Assembly (NCBI RefSeq): GCF_017876755.1
Contig: NZ_JAGIOO010000001.1
Span: 2,937,786 to 2,961,785, forward strand
Direction: 5' to 3'
DNA from: Crossiella equi
GTDB lineage: Bacteria > Actinomycetota > Actinomycetes > Mycobacteriales > Pseudonocardiaceae
DNA length: 24,000 bases
Shown here: in pieces, positions 3,605 to 22,013 of the stretch
How the letters are laid out: every line of letters starts with the position of its first letter
Numbering within the stretch: the first letter of the stretch is position 1
Position numbers and translations under genes: made by a program
Notes under the pieces: generated by a model
Told to the model about the DNA's origin: nothing
Databases searched by the model: none
The model's input: only the letters and a program-made list of their open reading frames with translations

Positions 3605-4876
3605 GTGACTCCTCGTCGCCACCCGGTCGCGGGCCGCCGCCAGCCCCACCCGGCCGCGGGCCGTCCCCGGTACCGCCGACCCGGGTTCCTCGCCGGGGCC
3701 GTCGCCGCGGTCAGCCTGCTCGTCGCCGTCATCGCGCTCTGGCCCGCCTTCGGCAGCTACCTGGCCCTGGACAGCAGCCTGTCCGTGGCCAAGGTGGCCG
3801 TGGCGGACAGGCAGGCCGAGTACTCCGCCCGGGACGTCGAGGCAGGCACCGCCACCGACGGCAAGGCCGACGTCGCCACCCTCGACATCACCCTGGCCAA
3901 CGCGGGCCAGCGCGCGGGCGTGGTCAACCGGGTCGAGCTCCGGGTGCACAACGTCTGGGCCCCGGCCTGCGGCGGGGGCGGCGGGCTGACCACCAGCGTG
4001 CGCTACGACTTCCTGCTGCCCGGCGACATCGCGGGCCTGCCCAAACCGCACCCGCTGTCCCGCACCGCACCCCAGTTCCAGGTGGAGGGCCTCAAGAACG
4101 ACGTGCTCGGCATCTCGGTCGGGCCCGAGCACCTCGGCGAGCTGGCCTGGAACTGGCTCGTCGACTTCTCCGTGACGCTGCACCAGAACGACGGCCCGCC
4201 CCTGGACGCCGGGCGCGCGGTGCTCATGGACCGCGACCGCCTCGACGACGTGCTCAACCTGGTCGGCACCTTCGACCACTACGGCGACGCGAACATGATC
4301 GCCACCAACAAGGAGTGCGCCTACCGGGCGGTGCGCACCCTGGACACCGCGCTCGCGGTGCCCACCGACCGCAAGTCCCCGGCCATCCAGGAGCTCCGCG
4401 ACGGCCTGGCCGAGCTCGGCTACGCCCCCGGCGCGCCCGCCCCCACCACCTCGGCGGCGCCGTCCGGTCCGATGGACTCCATCCCGCTCAGCACCCCGGC
4501 CGCGCCCACCCCCTCCGCCGCGCCCGGTTCCCCGCCGGACCAGCGCCGCTGGGTCGCCCAGCTCGCCTCCCTGCCCGGCGAGACCACCCCGGCCGAACGG
4601 GAACGCGCCCGCGCCGACCACCAGCACCGCCTCGGCGCCGAGGTCAAGGTGCTGGAGAGCAGCCGCTACCCGTCCCTGGTGCCCGGCTACTGGGTGCTCT
4701 ACCAGCCCGGCCCGTTCCCCGACGGCAGCGCGGCGCTGGCCTTCTGCCACGACCGGGGCTTCCGCACGGAGAGCTCCTGCGTCGGCCGCTATCTCGGTAC
4801 CAGCCCCGAGCAACGCGTGCTCACCTGCCCGTTCTCGGCCAACGGAAGCCGCCGCAACTGCTACGGACCGGTCTGA
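3605..4876 (+). CDS. Membrane-anchored hypothetical protein (Arg-rich N-terminus, one TM, Pro/Ala-rich linker, Cys-containing C-terminal domain)
   Basis: 423 aa with a GTG start at 3605. TM segment: FLAGAVAAVSLLVAVIALWPAF. Linker: APGAPAPTTSAAPSGP...TPAAPTPSAAPGSPP. The C-terminal stretch WVAQLASL...YWVLYQPGPFPDGSAALAFC has a SPOR-like pattern, which is only weakly supported. The start codon is uncertain. Confidence 0.6.
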   Translation: MTPRRHPVAGRRQPHPAAGRPRYRRPGFLAGAVAAVSLLVAVIALWPAFGSYLALDSSLSVAKVAVADRQAEYSARDVEAGTATDGKADVATLDITLANAGQRAGVVNRVELRVHNVWAPACGGGGGLTTSVRYDFLLPGDIAGLPKPHPLSRTAPQFQVEGLKNDVLGISVGPEHLGELAWNWLVDFSVTLHQNDGPPLDAGRAVLMDRDRLDDVLNLVGTFDHYGDANMIATNKECAYRAVRTLDTALAVPTDRKSPAIQELRDGLAELGYAPGAPAPTTSAAPSGPMDSIPLSTPAAPTPSAAPGSPPDQRRWVAQLASLPGETTPAERERARADHQHRLGAEVKVLESSRYPSLVPGYWVLYQPGPFPDGSAALAFCHDRGFRTESSCVGRYLGTSPEQRVLTCPFSANGSRRNCYGPV

Positions 4877-4884
4877 CGCGCGGA

Positions 4885-4907
4885 TTGTCGGGGTCCCGGG
4901 CAAGGAT
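4885..4907 (+). promoter_or_regulatory. RecA-NDp / PafBC-type DNA-damage promoter candidate for lhr, implying a leaderless transcript
   Basis: TTGTCGGGG (4885-4893), 8 nt, AAGGAT (4902-4907), 6 nt, then ATG (4914). The mycobacterial RecA-NDp motif is tTGTCRgtg-N8-TAnnnT. The -10 keeps the A at position 2 and the T at position 6 but lacks the first T. Confidence 0.45.
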
Positions 4908-4913
4908 GGGGGC

Positions 4914-9476
<4,563 letters not shown>

Positions 9477-11994: not shown

Positions 11995-13521
11995 TCAGAA
12001 CGGCCAGTCGCCCCGGCCGGTGCGTTCGATCAGCGCGAGCTGGTCGAACGAGCGGTCGGAGAGGCCGCCGAAGGTGTGGCGGTGCGGCATGGCCGGGGTG
12101 TGGGCCGGTTCGTGGCCCGCCAGGTTCCAGGTGTAGACCGGGGTGCGGGCCGGGATCGCGCGGTGCACGTCGCCGTCGCTGTGCTGTTCGTCGGTCAGGA
12201 TCACCACGCGGTCGTGACCGGCGTAGTTGTCCCGCAGCGCACCGTGCGTGTCGGTGCCCTCGCCCAGGAAGTAGCCCTCGCGGTTCCAGCGGGCCAGGCC
12301 GACCAGCAGCGACTCGTCGCGGCGCGGCGGGAAGACCCGGTAGCCGCTGGAGTAGGACACCACGGTGGCCCGTTCCGCCCTGGCCGCCAGGGCCAGGCCG
12401 AAGGTGACCGCCGCGTCCCAGCGCAGCAGGCTGCCGCGTCCGGACAGGGGCCAGCGCATCGAGCCCGAGGTGTCGACCAGCACCAGGGTGCGGCCCGGCA
12501 GGCTCGGTACCGAGGACAGCGAGTGCCCCAGCGCGGTGTCCACTGTGGACTGCCAGCGGGGACCCGCCGCCCGGTGGGCCGACAGGAAGCGCAGGGGCAG
12601 CTGCCGGGAGCGGGCCACCTGGTCGGCGTCGGCCAGTCGTGCACCGATCGCCGCCGCGACCTCCTCCGGCAGCCCGGCCTCGTCGAAGTTGCGCAGGTTG
12701 CGCAGCAACGCCATGTAGCCCATGGACGGCACGACCGCCGCCCACGCCCGCGCGTCCAACGGGCCCTGCAACCAGCCCGCCAGCGCCTCCCACGTCATGC
12801 CCGCCGAGCGCAGTGCCGCCACCGCGTGCGCCGGGTCGGCCTCGACCAGGGCCCGGCGCCGCGCGAGCGGCAGTTCCACCAGCTCCTGCCGCGCCCGCAG
12901 CACCGGCAGCTCCGCCACCGACCCCGCGCGGTCGTGCCGCGCGTCGATCAGGTGCCGGAACAGCTTGCCCTGCAAGGCGTCCCGGGGTGTCGGGTGGGTG
13001 AGCTCCAGCACGTCGGCGAACCGGAAGGCCCGCGCCGAGGAGTCCCACTTGAGCGCCGAGCGCTCGTCGTAGAGCTCGCGGACGGCGTCGGCCACCCCGC
13101 GCTTGACCGGCTTCGGGATCGCCCGGCCGTACCGGGCGGTCCAGTAGGCCAGCAGCTCACCCGGCTCGTCCGCCCGCCGCAGCACCGAGGCCACGACCTG
13201 CCGGGACAGGCCGGGCAGACCGTGGTCGAGCCGCGTGCGGGCGAACTCGGCCGCACCGGCCAGCGCGGCCGAGCGCAGGTTCGCGCCGGACCGCAGCCAG
13301 CCGAGCAGCCGTGCCGTCCACAGTGGATCGGCCAGCGTGGCCTCGCGGACCAGTGCGGCGTAACGGGAGTCCCGCTGCTCCGCCGCCTCGTACGCGGTGT
13401 GCTCGCCGACCAGGTTGTTGACCGCCAGCAGGAAGAGCTCGGTGCGGAGGTCCCGCCCGTGCGCGACACCGCCCTCGTGCGTGCGCCGCCGGAGCCTGGT
13501 CAGCACGTTGAACTTCCCCAC
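11995..13521 (-). CDS. rsr: Ro60-related protein Rsr (TROVE domain plus vWA domain with MIDAS-like motif)
   Basis: 508 aa. GTG start preceded by GGGAGGTG. N-terminal TROVE-like region: THEGGVAHGRDLRTELFLLAVNNLVGEHTAYEAAEQRD ... MGYMALLRNLRNFDEAG. C-terminal vWA: TLVLVDTSGSM (DxSxS) ... VVILTDEQ. Further supported by the adjacent Y-RNA-like element. Confidence 0.85.
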   Translation of the reverse strand: MGKFNVLTRLRRRTHEGGVAHGRDLRTELFLLAVNNLVGEHTAYEAAEQRDSRYAALVREATLADPLWTARLLGWLRSGANLRSAALAGAAEFARTRLDHGLPGLSRQVVASVLRRADEPGELLAYWTARYGRAIPKPVKRGVADAVRELYDERSALKWDSSARAFRFADVLELTHPTPRDALQGKLFRHLIDARHDRAGSVAELPVLRARQELVELPLARRRALVEADPAHAVAALRSAGMTWEALAGWLQGPLDARAWAAVVPSMGYMALLRNLRNFDEAGLPEEVAAAIGARLADADQVARSRQLPLRFLSAHRAAGPRWQSTVDTALGHSLSSVPSLPGRTLVLVDTSGSMRWPLSGRGSLLRWDAAVTFGLALAARAERATVVSYSSGYRVFPPRRDESLLVGLARWNREGYFLGEGTDTHGALRDNYAGHDRVVILTDEQHSDGDVHRAIPARTPVYTWNLAGHEPAHTPAMPHRHTFGGLSDRSFDQLALIERTGRGDWPF

Positions 13522-13565
13522 CTCTGCTCACCTCCCGCGAATGCGAACATGACTGTGTACCAACG

Positions 13566-13717
13566 AAAAAAGTTTTGGGTGTGCCCGAGATCCAAGTCGG
13601 CGACGGTACAAACGTGCTCTGCCAAGCTGAGCTACCAGGCCCGGAGACCTGAGAGGGATTCGAACCCCCGACCTCGCCGTTCTGAGCGGAAGTAACCGTT
13701 GCCTGCGCACCGGGCAC
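13566..13717 (-). ncRNA. yrlA: YrlA-type bacterial Y RNA candidate with a circularly permuted tRNA-like domain (boundaries approximate)
   Basis: Minus strand: AGGUC, then T arm GGGGG-UUCGAAU-CCCUC (13669-13653). Next UCAGGUC (13652-13646), UCCG tetraloop (13645-13642), GGCCUGG (13641-13635), UA. Then D arm GCUC-AGCUUGGCA-GAGC (13632-13616). The flanks can pair: GUGCCCG (13717-13711) with CGGGCAC (13587-13581), and ACGGU(U)AC (13699-13692) with GUACCGU (13609-13603). A U6 tract sits at 13571-13566, 44 nt upstream of rsr. Confidence 0.75.
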
Positions 13718-13758: not shown

Positions 13759-14511
13759 TTATCCGAGCTCGCGCTCGGCGTAGACGCGCATCGCGTCCCG
13801 GATGAACTCGGCGGTACCGGCACCGAACTGCTCGTAGTTCCTGGTGAACCGCTCGTCCGCGACGTACAGCTCACCGATCCCGGCGAACTGCGCCGCGGTC
13901 GGCCGACGCCCCTGCCAGCCCGCCACGACCCACTCGTAGTGCCGCGCCACCACGGCCTGCACCTCGGCGTCCCCGGCGTCCTTGCCCGAGGCGGCCGCGG
14001 CGGCCAGCGCCGTGGCGATCTCCTCCTGCTCCCGGAAGTGCGCGCGCCGCCCGTCCTCGCCGAGCTCACGCCACCACCGGTCACCACGCGCGTAGGTCTC
14101 CTTCCCCCAGCGCCGCGTGACCTCTTCCTCGTACCGCGTGTGGTCAAAACCGTCGAACACCTCGGCGGCCATCAGTGGTTCACCTCTCTCCGTCTTCCGC
14201 AACGTCGTCCGCACCGACTCGATCTGCCGCCCGATGCGCTGCCGCTCCTGTTCGAGCAGCGCCAGGTGGGTGCGCAGCGCGGCGACGGTGTCCCGCTGCC
14301 CGCCGAGCACCTCGGCGATCGCCGGGAGGCCCAGGCCCAGCTCGCGCAGCAGCAGGATGCGCTGCAGGCGCACGAGCGAGTCCTCGTCGTAGAAGCGGTA
14401 GCCGTTGCGGCCGACGCGGCTCGGCGGCAGCAGCCCCAGCTCGCCGTAGTGGCGGAGCGTGCGGCTGGTGGTGCCCGCCGAGCGCGCGAGGTCCTGGATC
14501 GACCACTCCAC
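13759..14511 (-). CDS. MerR-family transcriptional regulator, TipAL-like (N-terminal MerR HTH plus C-terminal TipAS antibiotic-recognition domain)
   Basis: Trimmed from ORF 13759..14949 to the GTG at 14511 (GGGAGG lies 8 nt upstream; an alternative GTG is at 14520). HTH region: WSIQDLARSAGTTSRTLRHYGELGLLPPSRVGRNGYRFYDEDSLVRLQRILLLRELGLGLPAI. TipAS-like tail: ...RWGKETYA...ELYVADERFTRNYEQFGAGTAEFIRDAM. About 250 aa, similar in size to TipAL. Confidence 0.85.
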   Translation of the reverse strand: MEWSIQDLARSAGTTSRTLRHYGELGLLPPSRVGRNGYRFYDEDSLVRLQRILLLRELGLGLPAIAEVLGGQRDTVAALRTHLALLEQERQRIGRQIESVRTTLRKTERGEPLMAAEVFDGFDHTRYEEEVTRRWGKETYARGDRWWRELGEDGRRAHFREQEEIATALAAAAASGKDAGDAEVQAVVARHYEWVVAGWQGRRPTAAQFAGIGELYVADERFTRNYEQFGAGTAEFIRDAMRVYAERELG

Positions 14512-14590: not shown

Positions 14591-15352
14591 TTAGCCCGAT
14601 GCGGTGGCCAGGCGTTGCAGCGCCCACAGCTGGGCGGTGGCGTCCCGGCTGCCCGCGAGCGTGACCGCGCGGTCGGGCATGCGGCCCCACAGCCACAGGT
14701 AGACCGCCATCGGGTCGCCGGTGACCAGCCCGTCCGCCCCCGCGGCCTCGGTGGCCGAGACCCGCTCGGCGACGGTGCCCTCCGGGCCGGTGTGCACCAG
14801 CCAGGCGTGCCCGCCGCAGCGCACGCCGACGGTGGCGCGCCGCGGGCCGGTGATGCCCAGGCGGCCGAGGCGGTAGCCCAGCCACAGCAGCAGCGCCTCG
14901 TCCACGCCGTCCACGGCGAACTCGGGCGCCACCTCCAGCAGCGGCGCACCGGCCGCGGCCTGCGCGTCCACCCGGTGCAGCGTGGACTCGTGCGCCAGCC
15001 GCCGCCGCCAGAACCCGTAGCTCGTGTCAGCGGGCCACCAGGTCGGGCAGGGCGCGTACGCGTCGTGCGCGGCCAGCTCGCCGACCAGCACGGCCAGCCC
15101 GGTGCGCACCTGCTCCACCGGCGTGCCGGGCGGTTCGCCGACGACCAGCGGCGGCGCGCCGGTGCGGATCCAGCTCACCGCGAGCCGGTAGCCGAGCGCG
15201 GCCGCGCGGACCGCCTCGCCGAGCGTGCGCCGCGGCCAGGCGGGCACGGCGCTGCCGAGGTCGGCCCCGGCAGCGCACGCGGCGAGCAGTTCCCCTTCGT
15301 TCTGGAGCGTGTCGAGCAGCTGGGACGGATCGACGAGTGCCTGCGCGCTCAC
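14591..15352 (-). CDS. Maleylpyruvate isomerase-family (DinB-fold) mycothiol-dependent-enzyme-like protein
   Basis: Trimmed from ORF 14591..15505 to the GTG at 15352, which overlaps the upstream stop as GTGA. 253 aa. Contains FWRRRLAHESTLHRVDAQAA (the family E...H metal motif) and a C-terminal GDPMAVYLWLWGR segment typical of this actinobacterial family. Confidence 0.7.
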   Translation of the reverse strand: MSAQALVDPSQLLDTLQNEGELLAACAAGADLGSAVPAWPRRTLGEAVRAAALGYRLAVSWIRTGAPPLVVGEPPGTPVEQVRTGLAVLVGELAAHDAYAPCPTWWPADTSYGFWRRRLAHESTLHRVDAQAAAGAPLLEVAPEFAVDGVDEALLLWLGYRLGRLGITGPRRATVGVRCGGHAWLVHTGPEGTVAERVSATEAAGADGLVTGDPMAVYLWLWGRMPDRAVTLAGSRDATAQLWALQRLATASG

Positions 15353-15822
15353 CTGTCTGCCTCGTGCAGGACCCGCTCGGCGAGCACGAGGAAGTCCTCG
15401 GTCTGCCGCAGCAGGTCGTCGGCGTCGCGCTGGGTGACCAGGCGGGTGATGCCCGCCTGCACCTGGGCCCGCCGCTGCGAGCCCGAGGCGTAAAACGCGG
15501 CCCATTCCCGCAGCTCAGGGGCCGCGTTGGCGAGCAGCACCCACACGCTGGTGGGCTTGGCCCGGCCCGGCCGGGGCTTGGCGCGGATGGCCAGCACCGA
15601 GGCGGCCGCGCGCAGGGCGGCCAGGTGGGCCACCGCGTAGCGCTCGGCGGGCTGGGGCTCGCGACGGGCCGACTCGAGGCCGCGCTGGGCCTGGGCGAGC
15701 AGCCCGGCGGCGGCCACCGGCCCGGTGCGCGGGCGGTAGGGGAACTCGGGGGCGCTGCGGCTCACGAGCGCGCCGGAGCGACCAGCGGTGGAGTGTCGAG
15801 GGAAGGGAATGGAAACAGTCAT
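15349..15822 (-). CDS. SAV_6107-family HEPN-like domain protein
   Basis: Trimmed to the ATG at 15822, with GAGGAGG 6 nt upstream. 157 aa. The sequence ERYAVAHLAALRAAASVLAIRAKPRP...VWVLLANAAPELREWAAFYASGSQRRAQVQAGITRLVTQRDADDLLRQTEDFL matches my memory of that family. No Rx4-6H motif is visible. Confidence 0.65.
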   Translation of the reverse strand: MTVSIPFPRHSTAGRSGALVSRSAPEFPYRPRTGPVAAAGLLAQAQRGLESARREPQPAERYAVAHLAALRAAASVLAIRAKPRPGRAKPTSVWVLLANAAPELREWAAFYASGSQRRAQVQAGITRLVTQRDADDLLRQTEDFLVLAERVLHEADR

Positions 15823-15937
15823 CACGGCCTCCTCGAACGACGTCAGACGACGACTCCGCTGAGGGGAAGCCAGCGGTGCCGGGCGGCGAGGTGCTTCCCC
15901 CACCCCGCCGCCCGGCTTCGTCCGTACGCACGCCCTC

Positions 15938-15953
15938 TCGAACACGCGTTCGA
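15938..15953. promoter_or_regulatory. LexA SOS box, perfect match to the actinobacterial consensus TCGAAC-N4-GTTCGA
   Basis: The sequence is TCGAACACGCGTTCGA. It lies in the divergent intergenic region, 116 nt upstream of the HEPN-like ATG and 97 nt upstream of the GNAT GTG. On the minus strand a candidate promoter sits just upstream: TTGAGC (15991-15986), 18 bp, TAGGCT (15967-15962). The box would therefore cover the predicted +1. Confidence 0.6.
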
Positions 15954-16049
15954 ACGAGTGCAGCCTAACCCGGGGGACCGACAGAGCTCAACCCGTCTCG
16001 GCGTGGGGCGGAACACCGTCCGGCCACGCGGTCATGGTCTGATGGGACG

Positions 16050-16625
16050 GTGAGCGCAGCAGAGCACCCGGGCATCAGCGAGACCGTCGTCGACCTCAGC
16101 GCCGACGACCTCCGCCTCCGCCTCGGCGAGGCGCTGGCGCTCTACGTGGCCGCGATGCGCTACCCGCCGAGCACGGTGCAGCAGCGGGCGCCGATGTGGC
16201 TCGCGCACATGGTGCGGGCGGGCTGGCGCTGCGTGGGCGTCTTCGACGAGCAGGGCGCGCTGGCCGGGGTCGGCTACGGCTACCGGGGCGCCACCGGGCA
16301 GTGGTGGCACGAGCAGGTGCGGCGCGGGCTCACCGCGGTGGCCCCCCCGGAGTCCGTGCAGCACTGGATGAGCGACTACTTCGAGCTGACCGAGCTGCAC
16401 GTGCGCCCGGACGCGCAGGGCCGGGGCCTGGGCGAGCGGCTGCTGCGCGCGCTGCTCTCCCGCACCGACTCCGGCACGGTGCTGCTGAGCACCCCGGAGG
16501 GCCCGTCCCGGGCGTGGAAGCTGTACCGGCGGCTCGGGTTCGAGGACGTGTTGCGGCACTACACCTTCACCGGGGACCCCCGGCCCTTCGCCGTGCTGGG
16601 CCGGAGGCTCCCGGTTCAGGACTGA
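16050..16625 (+). CDS. GNAT-family N-acetyltransferase
   Basis: 191 aa with a GTG start. Acetyl-CoA motif: ELHVRPDAQGRGLGERLLRALL ... AWKLYRRLGF. Its position is equivalent to Rv2170 in the M. tuberculosis lppM neighbourhood. Confidence 0.8.
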   Translation: MSAAEHPGISETVVDLSADDLRLRLGEALALYVAAMRYPPSTVQQRAPMWLAHMVRAGWRCVGVFDEQGALAGVGYGYRGATGQWWHEQVRRGLTAVAPPESVQHWMSDYFELTELHVRPDAQGRGLGERLLRALLSRTDSGTVLLSTPEGPSRAWKLYRRLGFEDVLRHYTFTGDPRPFAVLGRRLPVQD

Positions 16626-21119: not shown

Positions 21120-22013
21120 TCAGGCCCTGGCTGGCACCAAGCCGACGTTCTCCAAGACTTCCCGCGTCGCCGTCGACTTGTTCAGCGTGTAGTAGTGCAG
21201 GTTCAGCACGCCCTCGGACAGCAGCCGCTGCGACAGCTCGGTGGCGATGGCCACGCCCTCCTGGCGCACGGCCGCCGGGTCCTCGGCGATCGGGGCGATG
21301 CGGGCCTCGATCTCCTCCGGGATCGGGTCGCCGGACAGCTCGGCCATGCGGCGCACGCCCTTGACCGAGGTGATCGGCATCAGGCCCGGCAGCAGCGGGG
21401 TGCGGGAGACGTCCACGCCCCGGGCGGCCACGCGGTCGCGCAGGCGCAGGAAGTCCTCGGCCCGGAACACCGTCTGGGAGACCGCGTACTCCGCGCCCGC
21501 GTCGAACTTGCGCACCAGGTTGTCCGCGTCGGACTCCAGGTCGGCCGAACGCGGGTGGCCGTTGGGGAAGCAGGCGACACTGACGCAGAAGTCACCGAGG
21601 CTGCGCACCAGGCGCACCAGCTCCTCGGCGTAGAGCAGGCCCTCCGGGTGCTGGACCCACTCGCCGTGCGGGTCGCCGGGCGGGTCGCCCCGCAGCGCCA
21701 GGACGTTGGTGACCCCGGCGGCGGCGTACCAGCCGATGATGTTGCGCAGCTCGGCGATCGAGTGGTTGACCGCGGTCAGATGGGCCACCGGGATGAGGGT
21801 GGTCTCCTGGGCGATGCGGCCGGTGATGCGGATCGTGCGGTCCCGCTTGGACCCACCCGCGCCGTAGGTGACGGAGACGAAGGTGGGGTCGAGGGGCTCC
21901 AGGTCCCGGATGGAGCGCCACAGCTGCTTCTCCGCGTTCTCGTCCCCCGGCGGGAAGAACTCCACCGAGAACGAGGGCCGTGCTTCGCACAGCCGTTCCA
22001 CCACCGACGTCAT
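21120..22013 (-). CDS. Methylenetetrahydrofolate reductase (Rv2172c-type MTHFR)
   Basis: 297 aa. Contains FSVEFFPP, FVSVTYGAGGS, PVAHLT, VLALRGDPP and LHYYTLNK, all MTHFR-family signatures. Syntenic with Rv2172c. Confidence 0.88.
   Translation of the reverse strand: MTSVVERLCEARPSFSVEFFPPGDENAEKQLWRSIRDLEPLDPTFVSVTYGAGGSKRDRTIRITGRIAQETTLIPVAHLTAVNHSIAELRNIIGWYAAAGVTNVLALRGDPPGDPHGEWVQHPEGLLYAEELVRLVRSLGDFCVSVACFPNGHPRSADLESDADNLVRKFDAGAEYAVSQTVFRAEDFLRLRDRVAARGVDVSRTPLLPGLMPITSVKGVRRMAELSGDPIPEEIEARIAPIAEDPAAVRQEGVAIATELSQRLLSEGVLNLHYYTLNKSTATREVLENVGLVPARA

Follow-up and report, generated by a model that had tools for sequence, protein, structure and literature searches.

A conserved candidate LexA operator at the promoter of a HEPN_SAV_6107 gene pair in Crossiella equi and its relatives

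LexA regulons are largely unknown outside model organisms, and one site in the actinobacterium Crossiella equi raises the question of what such a regulon might contain. The site lies in a 24,000-nucleotide stretch of contig NZ_JAGIOO010000001.1 (positions 2,937,786 to 2,961,785; hereafter the window, within which all coordinates are given). A sequence-only reading of this DNA had proposed a LexA operator (SOS box) at 15938-15953, between a minus-strand operon for a HEPN-like protein and a plus-strand GNAT gene. Does this palindrome act as a LexA operator, and which genes does it serve? With a probability of roughly 0.85, we consider it a functional LexA operator on the promoter of the minus-strand operon, in which a HEPN_SAV_6107 gene is translationally coupled to a gene for an MDMPI-like protein, presumably of the DinB fold. 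The literature we searched describes neither this candidate LexA operator nor the SOS-regulon gene pair it would define, and the site points to a widespread actinobacterial protein family of unknown function as a candidate damage-response protein. To the earlier reading we add conservation across a whole bacterial family, Pseudonocardiaceae, a link between HEPN_SAV_6107 and a polymerase cassette, an apparent exchange of LexA and PafBC signals between lineages, and an undescribed 5' leader.

The actinobacterial SOS box has the consensus TCGAAC-N4-GTTCGA. The sequence TCGAACACGCGTTCGA at 15938-15953, which reads TCGAACGCGTGTTCGA on the strand of the HEPN gene (minus), is a perfect palindrome that matches all 12 specified bases, as the sequence-only reading had stated. 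Its further claim that this is the sole full match also holds: we find a single zero-mismatch site in 24 kb, none in 100 dinucleotide-preserving shuffles, and an expectation of about 4e-4 perfect matches per window from base composition (74% G+C). Sites with two mismatches occur at 12044-12059 and 21985-22000, both within coding sequence. Since 0.57 sites with at most two mismatches are expected by chance, and 3 of 100 shuffles reach three such sites, the excess over chance rests on the perfect box. The box also fits tCGAAC-N4-GNNCGa, the LexA motif of Streptomyces venezuelae that was validated by ChIP-seq (chromatin immunoprecipitation with sequencing) and surface plasmon resonance, and it is closer to the consensus than most of the validated S. 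venezuelae sites (Table 1 of PMC9380542).

The position of the box relative to a promoter read from the sequence is consistent with repression. On the minus strand, a -35 hexamer TTGAGC (15991..15986) is followed by an 18-nt spacer, a -10 hexamer TAGGCT (15967..15962), 8 nt and the box (15953..15938), an arrangement that the sequence-only reading had described exactly and whose two hexamers are conserved in orthologues. Transcription would start about 7 nt after the -10, so that the box would cover roughly +1 to +17. A LexA dimer on the box, which begins 8 nt past the -10, would therefore lie over the start site and block RNA polymerase; DNA damage would lift this repression through RecA-stimulated self-cleavage of LexA. 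The resulting transcript would carry a structured leader of about 115 nt, which probably adds a post-transcriptional step of control.

How far does this arrangement extend beyond the window? A profile scan with the HEPN protein, using one genome per species, yielded 80 loci totalling 644 kb (referred to by L numbers where they must be told apart). Of these, 34 are Streptomyces-type and 46 are others; one of the latter (L014) ends at a contig edge and could not be assessed. A perfect box lies just upstream of the HEPN gene in all 45 assessable non-Streptomyces loci, which come from Crossiella, Umezawaea, Amycolatopsis, Actinokineospora, Actinosynnema, Pseudonocardia, Actinophytocola, Lentzea, Labedaea and Saccharothrix as well as from several metagenome-assembled genomes (MAGs). 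The 644 kb hold 46 perfect boxes, each upstream of a HEPN gene and none elsewhere, where about 0.01 would be expected by chance. When five loci from uncultured Actinomycetota (L081-L085, discussed below) are added, the count rises to 51 perfect boxes, all at the same place and none elsewhere in about 0.7 Mb. One Pseudonocardiaceae MAG (L016) has two perfect boxes 73 nt apart upstream of its HEPN gene, at 3691-3706 and 3764-3779 of that locus.

The promoter is kept along with the box. Among the 51 box-bearing promoters listed, 46 have a TAnnnT 7-9 nt ahead of the box, and in nearly all of the 51 a GGTTGAG or CTTGAC -35 lies 17-18 nt above the -10. In Amycolatopsis the box appears remote from the conserved domain (-665 to -933), which is due to a long repetitive N-terminal extension of the protein; it lies about 60-105 nt from the start codon. 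Across loci the N4 spacer is free to vary and the 12 half-site bases never change, which is the signature of a protein-binding site and not of an RNA helix. This bears on the possibility that the palindrome arose by chance, or that it matters as an RNA hairpin and not as a DNA operator. In the minimum free energy (MFE) model the palindrome can form a hairpin at the transcript's 5' end, but its half-sites are invariant where a helix would be expected to covary, and 51 perfect boxes at one position compare with about 0.01 expected. The conservation data effectively refute such an origin, to which we assign next to no probability.

A palindrome could also be the operator of another regulator, given that many dimeric regulators bind palindromes and that a MerR/TipAS regulator gene (13759..14508, minus strand) lies about 80 nt downstream of the operon. 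We regard this protein, or another dimeric helix-turn-helix protein, as a very unlikely owner of the site. Sites of MerR-type regulators fall in the spacer that separates -35 and -10, not after the -10. The MerR gene is found beside the operon in just two places, the window and the Crossiella locus L001, whereas the box is universal outside Streptomyces, and in other lineages the box heads genes for translesion-type polymerases. The match to all 12 SOS-box positions and the fit to the S. venezuelae LexA motif (PMC9380542) likewise argue for LexA.

Granted a LexA operator, which of the two flanking transcription units does it serve? The divergent GNAT gene (16050..16625, plus strand) shares an intergenic region of 227 nt with the HEPN gene, and its start codon is 97 nt from the box, so the box might mainly control GNAT or act on both units equally. 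Synteny argues otherwise. The window and Crossiella L001 have GNAT as the divergent neighbour, most other Pseudonocardiaceae a YbaK-like (tRNA_edit) gene with GNAT beyond it, and Streptomyces an ABC ATPase gene. Because the neighbour changes from lineage to lineage, the box is best assigned to the HEPN / MDMPI-like operon, moving with the HEPN promoter. Its spacing is constant only relative to that promoter and gene, the conserved -35 and -10 all read toward the HEPN gene, and a GNAT promoter would have to sit past the HEPN -35, some 40 nt or more away from the box. We therefore reject GNAT as the target and consider a main or equal share for it improbable.

Neither the window nor L001 contains a copy of the YbaK-like gene, which separates GNAT from the HEPN promoter in other Pseudonocardiaceae and is present in deep-branching lineages. 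Its loss in the Crossiella lineage (at 15954-16049 in the window and 3771-3866 in L001) brought the GNAT gene next to the operator.

What, then, do the genes under this promoter encode? The flanking genes are those named in the sequence-only reading (HEPN-like, maleylpyruvate-isomerase-like and GNAT). The first gene of the unit (15349..15822, minus strand) encodes a HEPN_SAV_6107 protein of 157 aa (PF18726, E 3.4e-35), a member of a large family with more than 5,000 proteins from one search. An AlphaFold2 model gives a helical bundle with a mean pLDDT (predicted local distance difference test) of 85, in which the first ~33 residues are predicted to be disordered. The best PDB matches of the model are HEPN domains (2hsb, 1wol and the sacsin domain 3o10), with query-length-normalised TM-scores of 0.55-0.59 and weak E-values, and sequence searches of the PDB with the HEPN profile found no relative. 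The Rx4-6H catalytic motif is not conserved in the family: R61 is invariant, and H66 of the window's protein is Tyr in many relatives. The HEPN survey of Anantharaman et al. (2013), the sole mention of SAV_6107 that our literature search found, likewise gives the SAV_6107 clade as lacking this motif.

The start of the HEPN gene is marked by a Shine-Dalgarno sequence GAGGAGG (15828..15834, minus strand), 5 nt before the ATG (15822..15820). In an alignment of the leader, its columns 134-136 (GAG) are identical in 31 of 31 sequences and columns 137-140 in at least 90%. The longest minus-strand open reading frame begins at a GTG within the box itself, and some database entries use extended starts of this kind. 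That start is an artefact, as shown by the ATG with its conserved Shine-Dalgarno sequence and by the RNA-type conservation of the stretch in between. HEPN_SAV_6107 proteins of Pseudonocardiaceae have a motif in common at the N-terminus, M-x3-[LIV]-D-F-P (window: MTVSIPFP; residues 1-33 correspond to 15822-15724, minus strand), followed by a disordered linker of variable length that reaches about 200 residues of proline-rich repeats in Amycolatopsis. The motif could be a short docking peptide, for example one that binds the clamp.

The second gene (14591..15352, minus strand) encodes a 253-aa MDMPI-like protein; its GTG start overlaps the HEPN stop codon (GTGA), and with few exceptions it comes after the HEPN gene in Pseudonocardiaceae loci. 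The DinB fold takes its name from an SOS-induced gene of Bacillus subtilis, and the DinB/YfiT-fold thiol-dependent enzymes include mycothiol-dependent maleylpyruvate isomerase. Like B. subtilis dinB, the window's gene sits under an SOS box, and its product matches the N- and C-terminal MDMPI domains. Unlike the case of a bona fide mycothiol-dependent maleylpyruvate isomerase, these matches are weak: PF11716 scores 25.0 bits against a cut-off of 24.2, and two further models fall below theirs (PF07398, 21.8 against 29.5 bits; TIGR03083, 37.3 against 50).

A link between the HEPN protein and DNA polymerases comes from outside the window's family. The relatives' loci from uncultured Actinomycetota (L081-L085, of 10-12 kb each; L082 is identical to L083, leaving four distinct) have a single perfect box apiece. 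It stands directly after TTGAC-N17-TAnnnT and heads a unit in which DUF6504 and HEPN_SAV_6107 genes precede a gene for a DnaE-type polymerase of about 1,300-1,400 aa, with a divergent YbaK-like gene on the other side. The cassette is located at 5000-12000 in L081, L082/L083 and L085, and is similar in L084 and in the MAG locus L071; in L084, two unannotated genes precede the polymerase gene. In L081-L083 the polymerase is followed by a methyltransferase and then a Y-family polymerase (Pol IV), and in L085 by a methyltransferase, after which the locus ends. A small gene also stands between box and HEPN gene in L071, where it is DUF6504, and in the Pseudonocardia loci L015 and L072. The DnaE-type polymerase scores nearly equally as DnaE1 and as error-prone DnaE2, under both cut-offs.

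LexA-controlled imuA-imuB-dnaE2 is a known SOS mutagenesis cassette, and the comparison is instructive. In both cases a box heads an operon in which small proteins (here DUF6504 and HEPN_SAV_6107) precede a DnaE-type polymerase, and L081-L083 also hold a Y-family gene. However, by Pfam these small proteins are neither ImuA nor ImuB, the Y-family enzyme is Pol IV and not ImuB, and the window's operon consists of the HEPN and MDMPI-like genes alone, with no polymerase. Our literature search found nothing on DUF6504, or on HEPN together with dnaE2 and LexA, and the DUF6504-HEPN-polymerase cassette does not seem to have been described. A homologue search with DUF6504 returned metagenome proteins only, with no link to a studied organism, and the PDB sequence search with it found no relative.

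In some lineages, then, the HEPN_SAV_6107 gene lies in a predicted operon with DNA polymerases. The ties of this protein family to polymerases and an SOS box reach well beyond the window's own bacterial family, which would make the operator ancient and the protein part of the DNA-damage response. The sequence-only reading had held that neither gene is a classical SOS function. This stands insofar as neither is a known repair gene, which also sets the window's site apart from known actinobacterial LexA operators such as those of S. venezuelae recA, lexA and dnaE2 (PMC9380542) or the M. tuberculosis SOS box, with which it shares the 16-bp palindrome and the location in a promoter region. It needs qualification in that the HEPN family occurs elsewhere behind an SOS box with a DnaE-type polymerase and Pol IV, and that the second gene's product is presumably of the DinB fold.

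Several results weigh against the assignment to LexA. A scan of 15700-16150 for sigma-70 promoters and terminators made no call; its thresholds demand a closer match to consensus than these hexamers offer, and for this reason we relied on their conservation instead. Our literature search found no LexA regulon study of Pseudonocardiaceae. A perfect box is present in none of the 34 Streptomyces-type loci, although the SAV_6107 family is named after Streptomyces; some of them have CCGAAC-N4-GATCGA, with two mismatches. The check proposed in the sequence-only reading, whether the box recurs at SAV_6107-family genes of other actinomycetes, is passed in the window's own lineage, with the box at 45 of 45 assessable non-Streptomyces loci, and at five deep-branching loci; these 34 loci are the exception. 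Finally, the S. venezuelae orthologue, which gene order indicates to be vnz_08605, next to the ABC ATPase gene vnz_08610, appears neither in the LexA ChIP tables of that species nor among the mitomycin-induced genes listed, in a study that reported 498 ChIP peaks (Stratton et al. 2022, PMC9380542). For vnz_08600 and vnz_08605, the region of this orthologue, there is no ChIP peak or induction among the entries listed; vnz_08610 is induced (log2 1.86) and has no ChIP entry (PMC9380542). Taken together, the Streptomyces-type loci with no box and vnz_08605 with no ChIP entry indicate that LexA control of the HEPN family is lineage-specific.

If LexA does not act at these promoters in Streptomyces, is there another damage signal? 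Each of the 34 Streptomyces-type loci has, just upstream of the HEPN gene, TGTCRGTG-N8 and then a -10-like hexamer; in nearly all this reads TGTCAGTG-N8-CACGAT, about 90-210 nt upstream of the HEPN match (L028, L033-L048, L051-L060, L064-L068, L074 and L080). This element is a PafBC-type promoter with one mismatch, as judged from its match to the published consensus tGTCgg(N10)tA(N3)T (PMC8635444). The window's own promoter carries the same kind of motif: on the minus strand at 15983..15962, overlapping the spacer and the -10, TGTCGGTCCCCCGGGTTAGGCT reads TGTCGG-TCCCCCGGGT-TAGGCT and is an exact match to TGTCGG-N10-TA-N3-T. It is the sole exact match in the window, and 2 of 100 shuffles reach one. 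Against the longer form TGTCRGTG-N8-TANNNT the window has one mismatch; four loci match it perfectly at the same place (L001, L003, L029 and L069, from Crossiella, Umezawaea and two MAGs), and near matches (TGTCCG, TGTCCC) occur in the deep-branching L071, L084 and L085. In many other loci the element is degenerate. The GTC triplet is found in about 10 of 46 distinct box-bearing promoters, and many have TGCCGG, TTCCGG or unrelated bases instead.

These observations suggest a tentative extension of the LexA reading, namely dual control, in which PafBC would activate the promoter through sigma adaptation after DNA damage and LexA repression would be laid on top. The exact and unique motif in the window, the perfect and near matches in other loci and the element kept in every Streptomyces-type locus all speak for it, and control by both regulators would have a parallel in mycobacteria, whose PafBC also acts on canonical SOS genes, recA among them (PMC8635444). 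The window's motif and its correct distance to the -10 resemble those of mycobacterial PafBC-dependent (RecA-NDp) promoters. However, those promoters are described as having no -35 element (PMC8635444), whereas a TTGAG -35 is conserved here, and the -26 element with its critical GTC triplet is kept in a minority of Pseudonocardiaceae orthologues. In S. venezuelae, moreover, the M. smegmatis PafBC motif is seemingly not conserved (Stratton et al. 2022, PMC9380542), and the absence of vnz_08605 from the induced genes listed counts here as well. On balance we hold dual control to be possible but not probable. PafBC as the sole controller we reject, given that most orthologous promoters lack the GTC element and that the promoter has a -35. 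A reasonable reading of the sequences is that an ancestral dual promoter had two inputs that different lineages retained differently. Damage-response motifs stand at HEPN_SAV_6107 promoters in three lineages, as an SOS box in Pseudonocardiaceae and in uncultured Actinomycetota and as a PafBC-type motif in Streptomyces.

A related motif occurs at the far end of the operon. In many Pseudonocardiaceae, TGTCGGTG-N8-TAnnnT, either perfect or with one mismatch, comes right after the MDMPI-like gene, at about +1150 to +1305 relative to the HEPN match (L002, L004, L006, L008-L010, L012, L014, L017, L019, L020, L022-L024, L027, L029, L049, L062 and L069; L070 has a similar motif at +1350). In most of these loci a start codon follows about 5-9 nt after the motif, which indicates a leaderless transcript. 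The gene in question encodes a Glyoxalase_6 (VOC) protein in L008, and the window has the MerR/TipAS gene at this position.

Between operator and start codon lies a further conserved element of the locus. What kind of conservation does this stretch (15823..15937, minus strand) show? We aligned 31 distinct leaders with MAFFT and predicted their structure with RNAalifold, which returned one hairpin, P1 (15878..15916, minus strand). P1 has a stem of 15-16 bp, compensatory changes in 10 of 15 pairs, and an invariant 7-nt loop GGGGAAG (15900..15894). In an independent count, 97.2% of its cells are paired, compared with 43-60% in slid controls, and none of 500 shuffles reaches the observed covariation. 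A G-U pair is present in 20 of 31 sequences, which fits an RNA read on the HEPN sense strand. A second hairpin, P2 (15856..15876, minus strand), with one compensatory pair and the loop GCUUCCCC (15871..15863), presents CUUCCCC, which is complementary to the P1 loop; a third, P3, ahead of the Shine-Dalgarno sequence, has two compensatory pairs. The complementarity between the P1 and P2 loops is invariant, and because both loops are invariant, covariation is uninformative about their pairing.

The P2 loop could alternatively pair with the Shine-Dalgarno region. In the window's MFE fold (-82.4 kcal/mol, z-score -4.87), GGCUUCC is paired with the Shine-Dalgarno region GGAGGCC, and the two are 76-92% paired in the alignment. 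This helix shows no covariation, and for that reason a Shine-Dalgarno-sequestering role is put forward here as a hypothesis. As in riboregulators and RNA thermometers that sequester a Shine-Dalgarno sequence, a conserved pyrimidine stretch (CUUCCCC) can pair either with that region or with a competing purine loop (GGGGAAG). The leader differs from such systems in having covariation support for P1 alone and no match in Rfam: against Rfam 15, the whole window and the intergenic region gave no leader match at gathering score, and spurious hairpin matches with E >0.6. The leader might switch translation, bind a protein or stabilise the transcript as a 5' structure; the GGGGAAG loop would compete with the Shine-Dalgarno region for CUUCCCC or serve as the site at which a protein binds.

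A covariance model of the leader (R1) scores 91.4 bits in the window (15925..15820, E 1e-16) and picks out another 41 sites, spread over 40 Pseudonocardiaceae loci and in every case upstream of the HEPN gene, giving 41 loci with the window. It has no match in Streptomyces-type or deep-branching loci. Scanning metagenomes for the P1 apex gave 120 stretches, of which 105 were unique with enough flank. A perfect box lies within 100 nt upstream in 43 of these 105 (13-37 nt where the spacing is listed); another 58, with no box and no extended stem, look unrelated. The remaining four have a stem by a crude test and no perfect box, one of them with a one-mismatch box and another (L143) with none. The leader is a compact RNA element with strong covariation that was previously undescribed. 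In the Actinosynnema locus L076, two partial leader copies lie about 100 nt apart (1620-1953) with unrelated, AT-richer sequence between them, which suggests an insertion between operator and HEPN gene.

It is tempting to join these elements in one account, although we consider the whole somewhat more doubtful than dual control by itself. HEPN_SAV_6107 would be an ancient, dedicated damage-response protein of Actinomycetota that was originally, together with DUF6504, a partner of an SOS-controlled DnaE-type/Pol IV cassette. In Pseudonocardiaceae its synthesis would pass two or three gates: LexA, possibly PafBC through the -26 element, and a leader RNA controlling translation or mRNA stability. 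Through this locus one could approach what a HEPN protein of non-catalytic appearance does, and how LexA and PafBC control have been exchanged between actinobacterial lineages.

The remainder of the window provides some context. Its nucleotide identity to Crossiella sp. S99.2 is 82-84%. LppM, MTHFR and polyprenyl synthase genes are present further along, a neighbourhood that strikes us as reminiscent of M. tuberculosis Rv2170-Rv2173. A plus-strand gene at 4299-9476 encodes a large Lhr-type helicase whose domains are DEAD, DEAD_assoc and four Lhr winged helices; in mycobacteria lhr is induced by damage, and upstream of the window's gene we found no PafBC or SOS motif. On the minus strand, a gene for a TROVE/Ro60-like protein with a vWA domain (11995-13527) is preceded by a match to the Y-RNA-like YrlA (RF02553) at 13594-13699, which at 37.2 bits falls short of the gathering score (69) and has an E-value of 5.7e-6 over the 2.4 kb that were searched. 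The gene and the match probably form a bacterial Ro / Y-RNA module.

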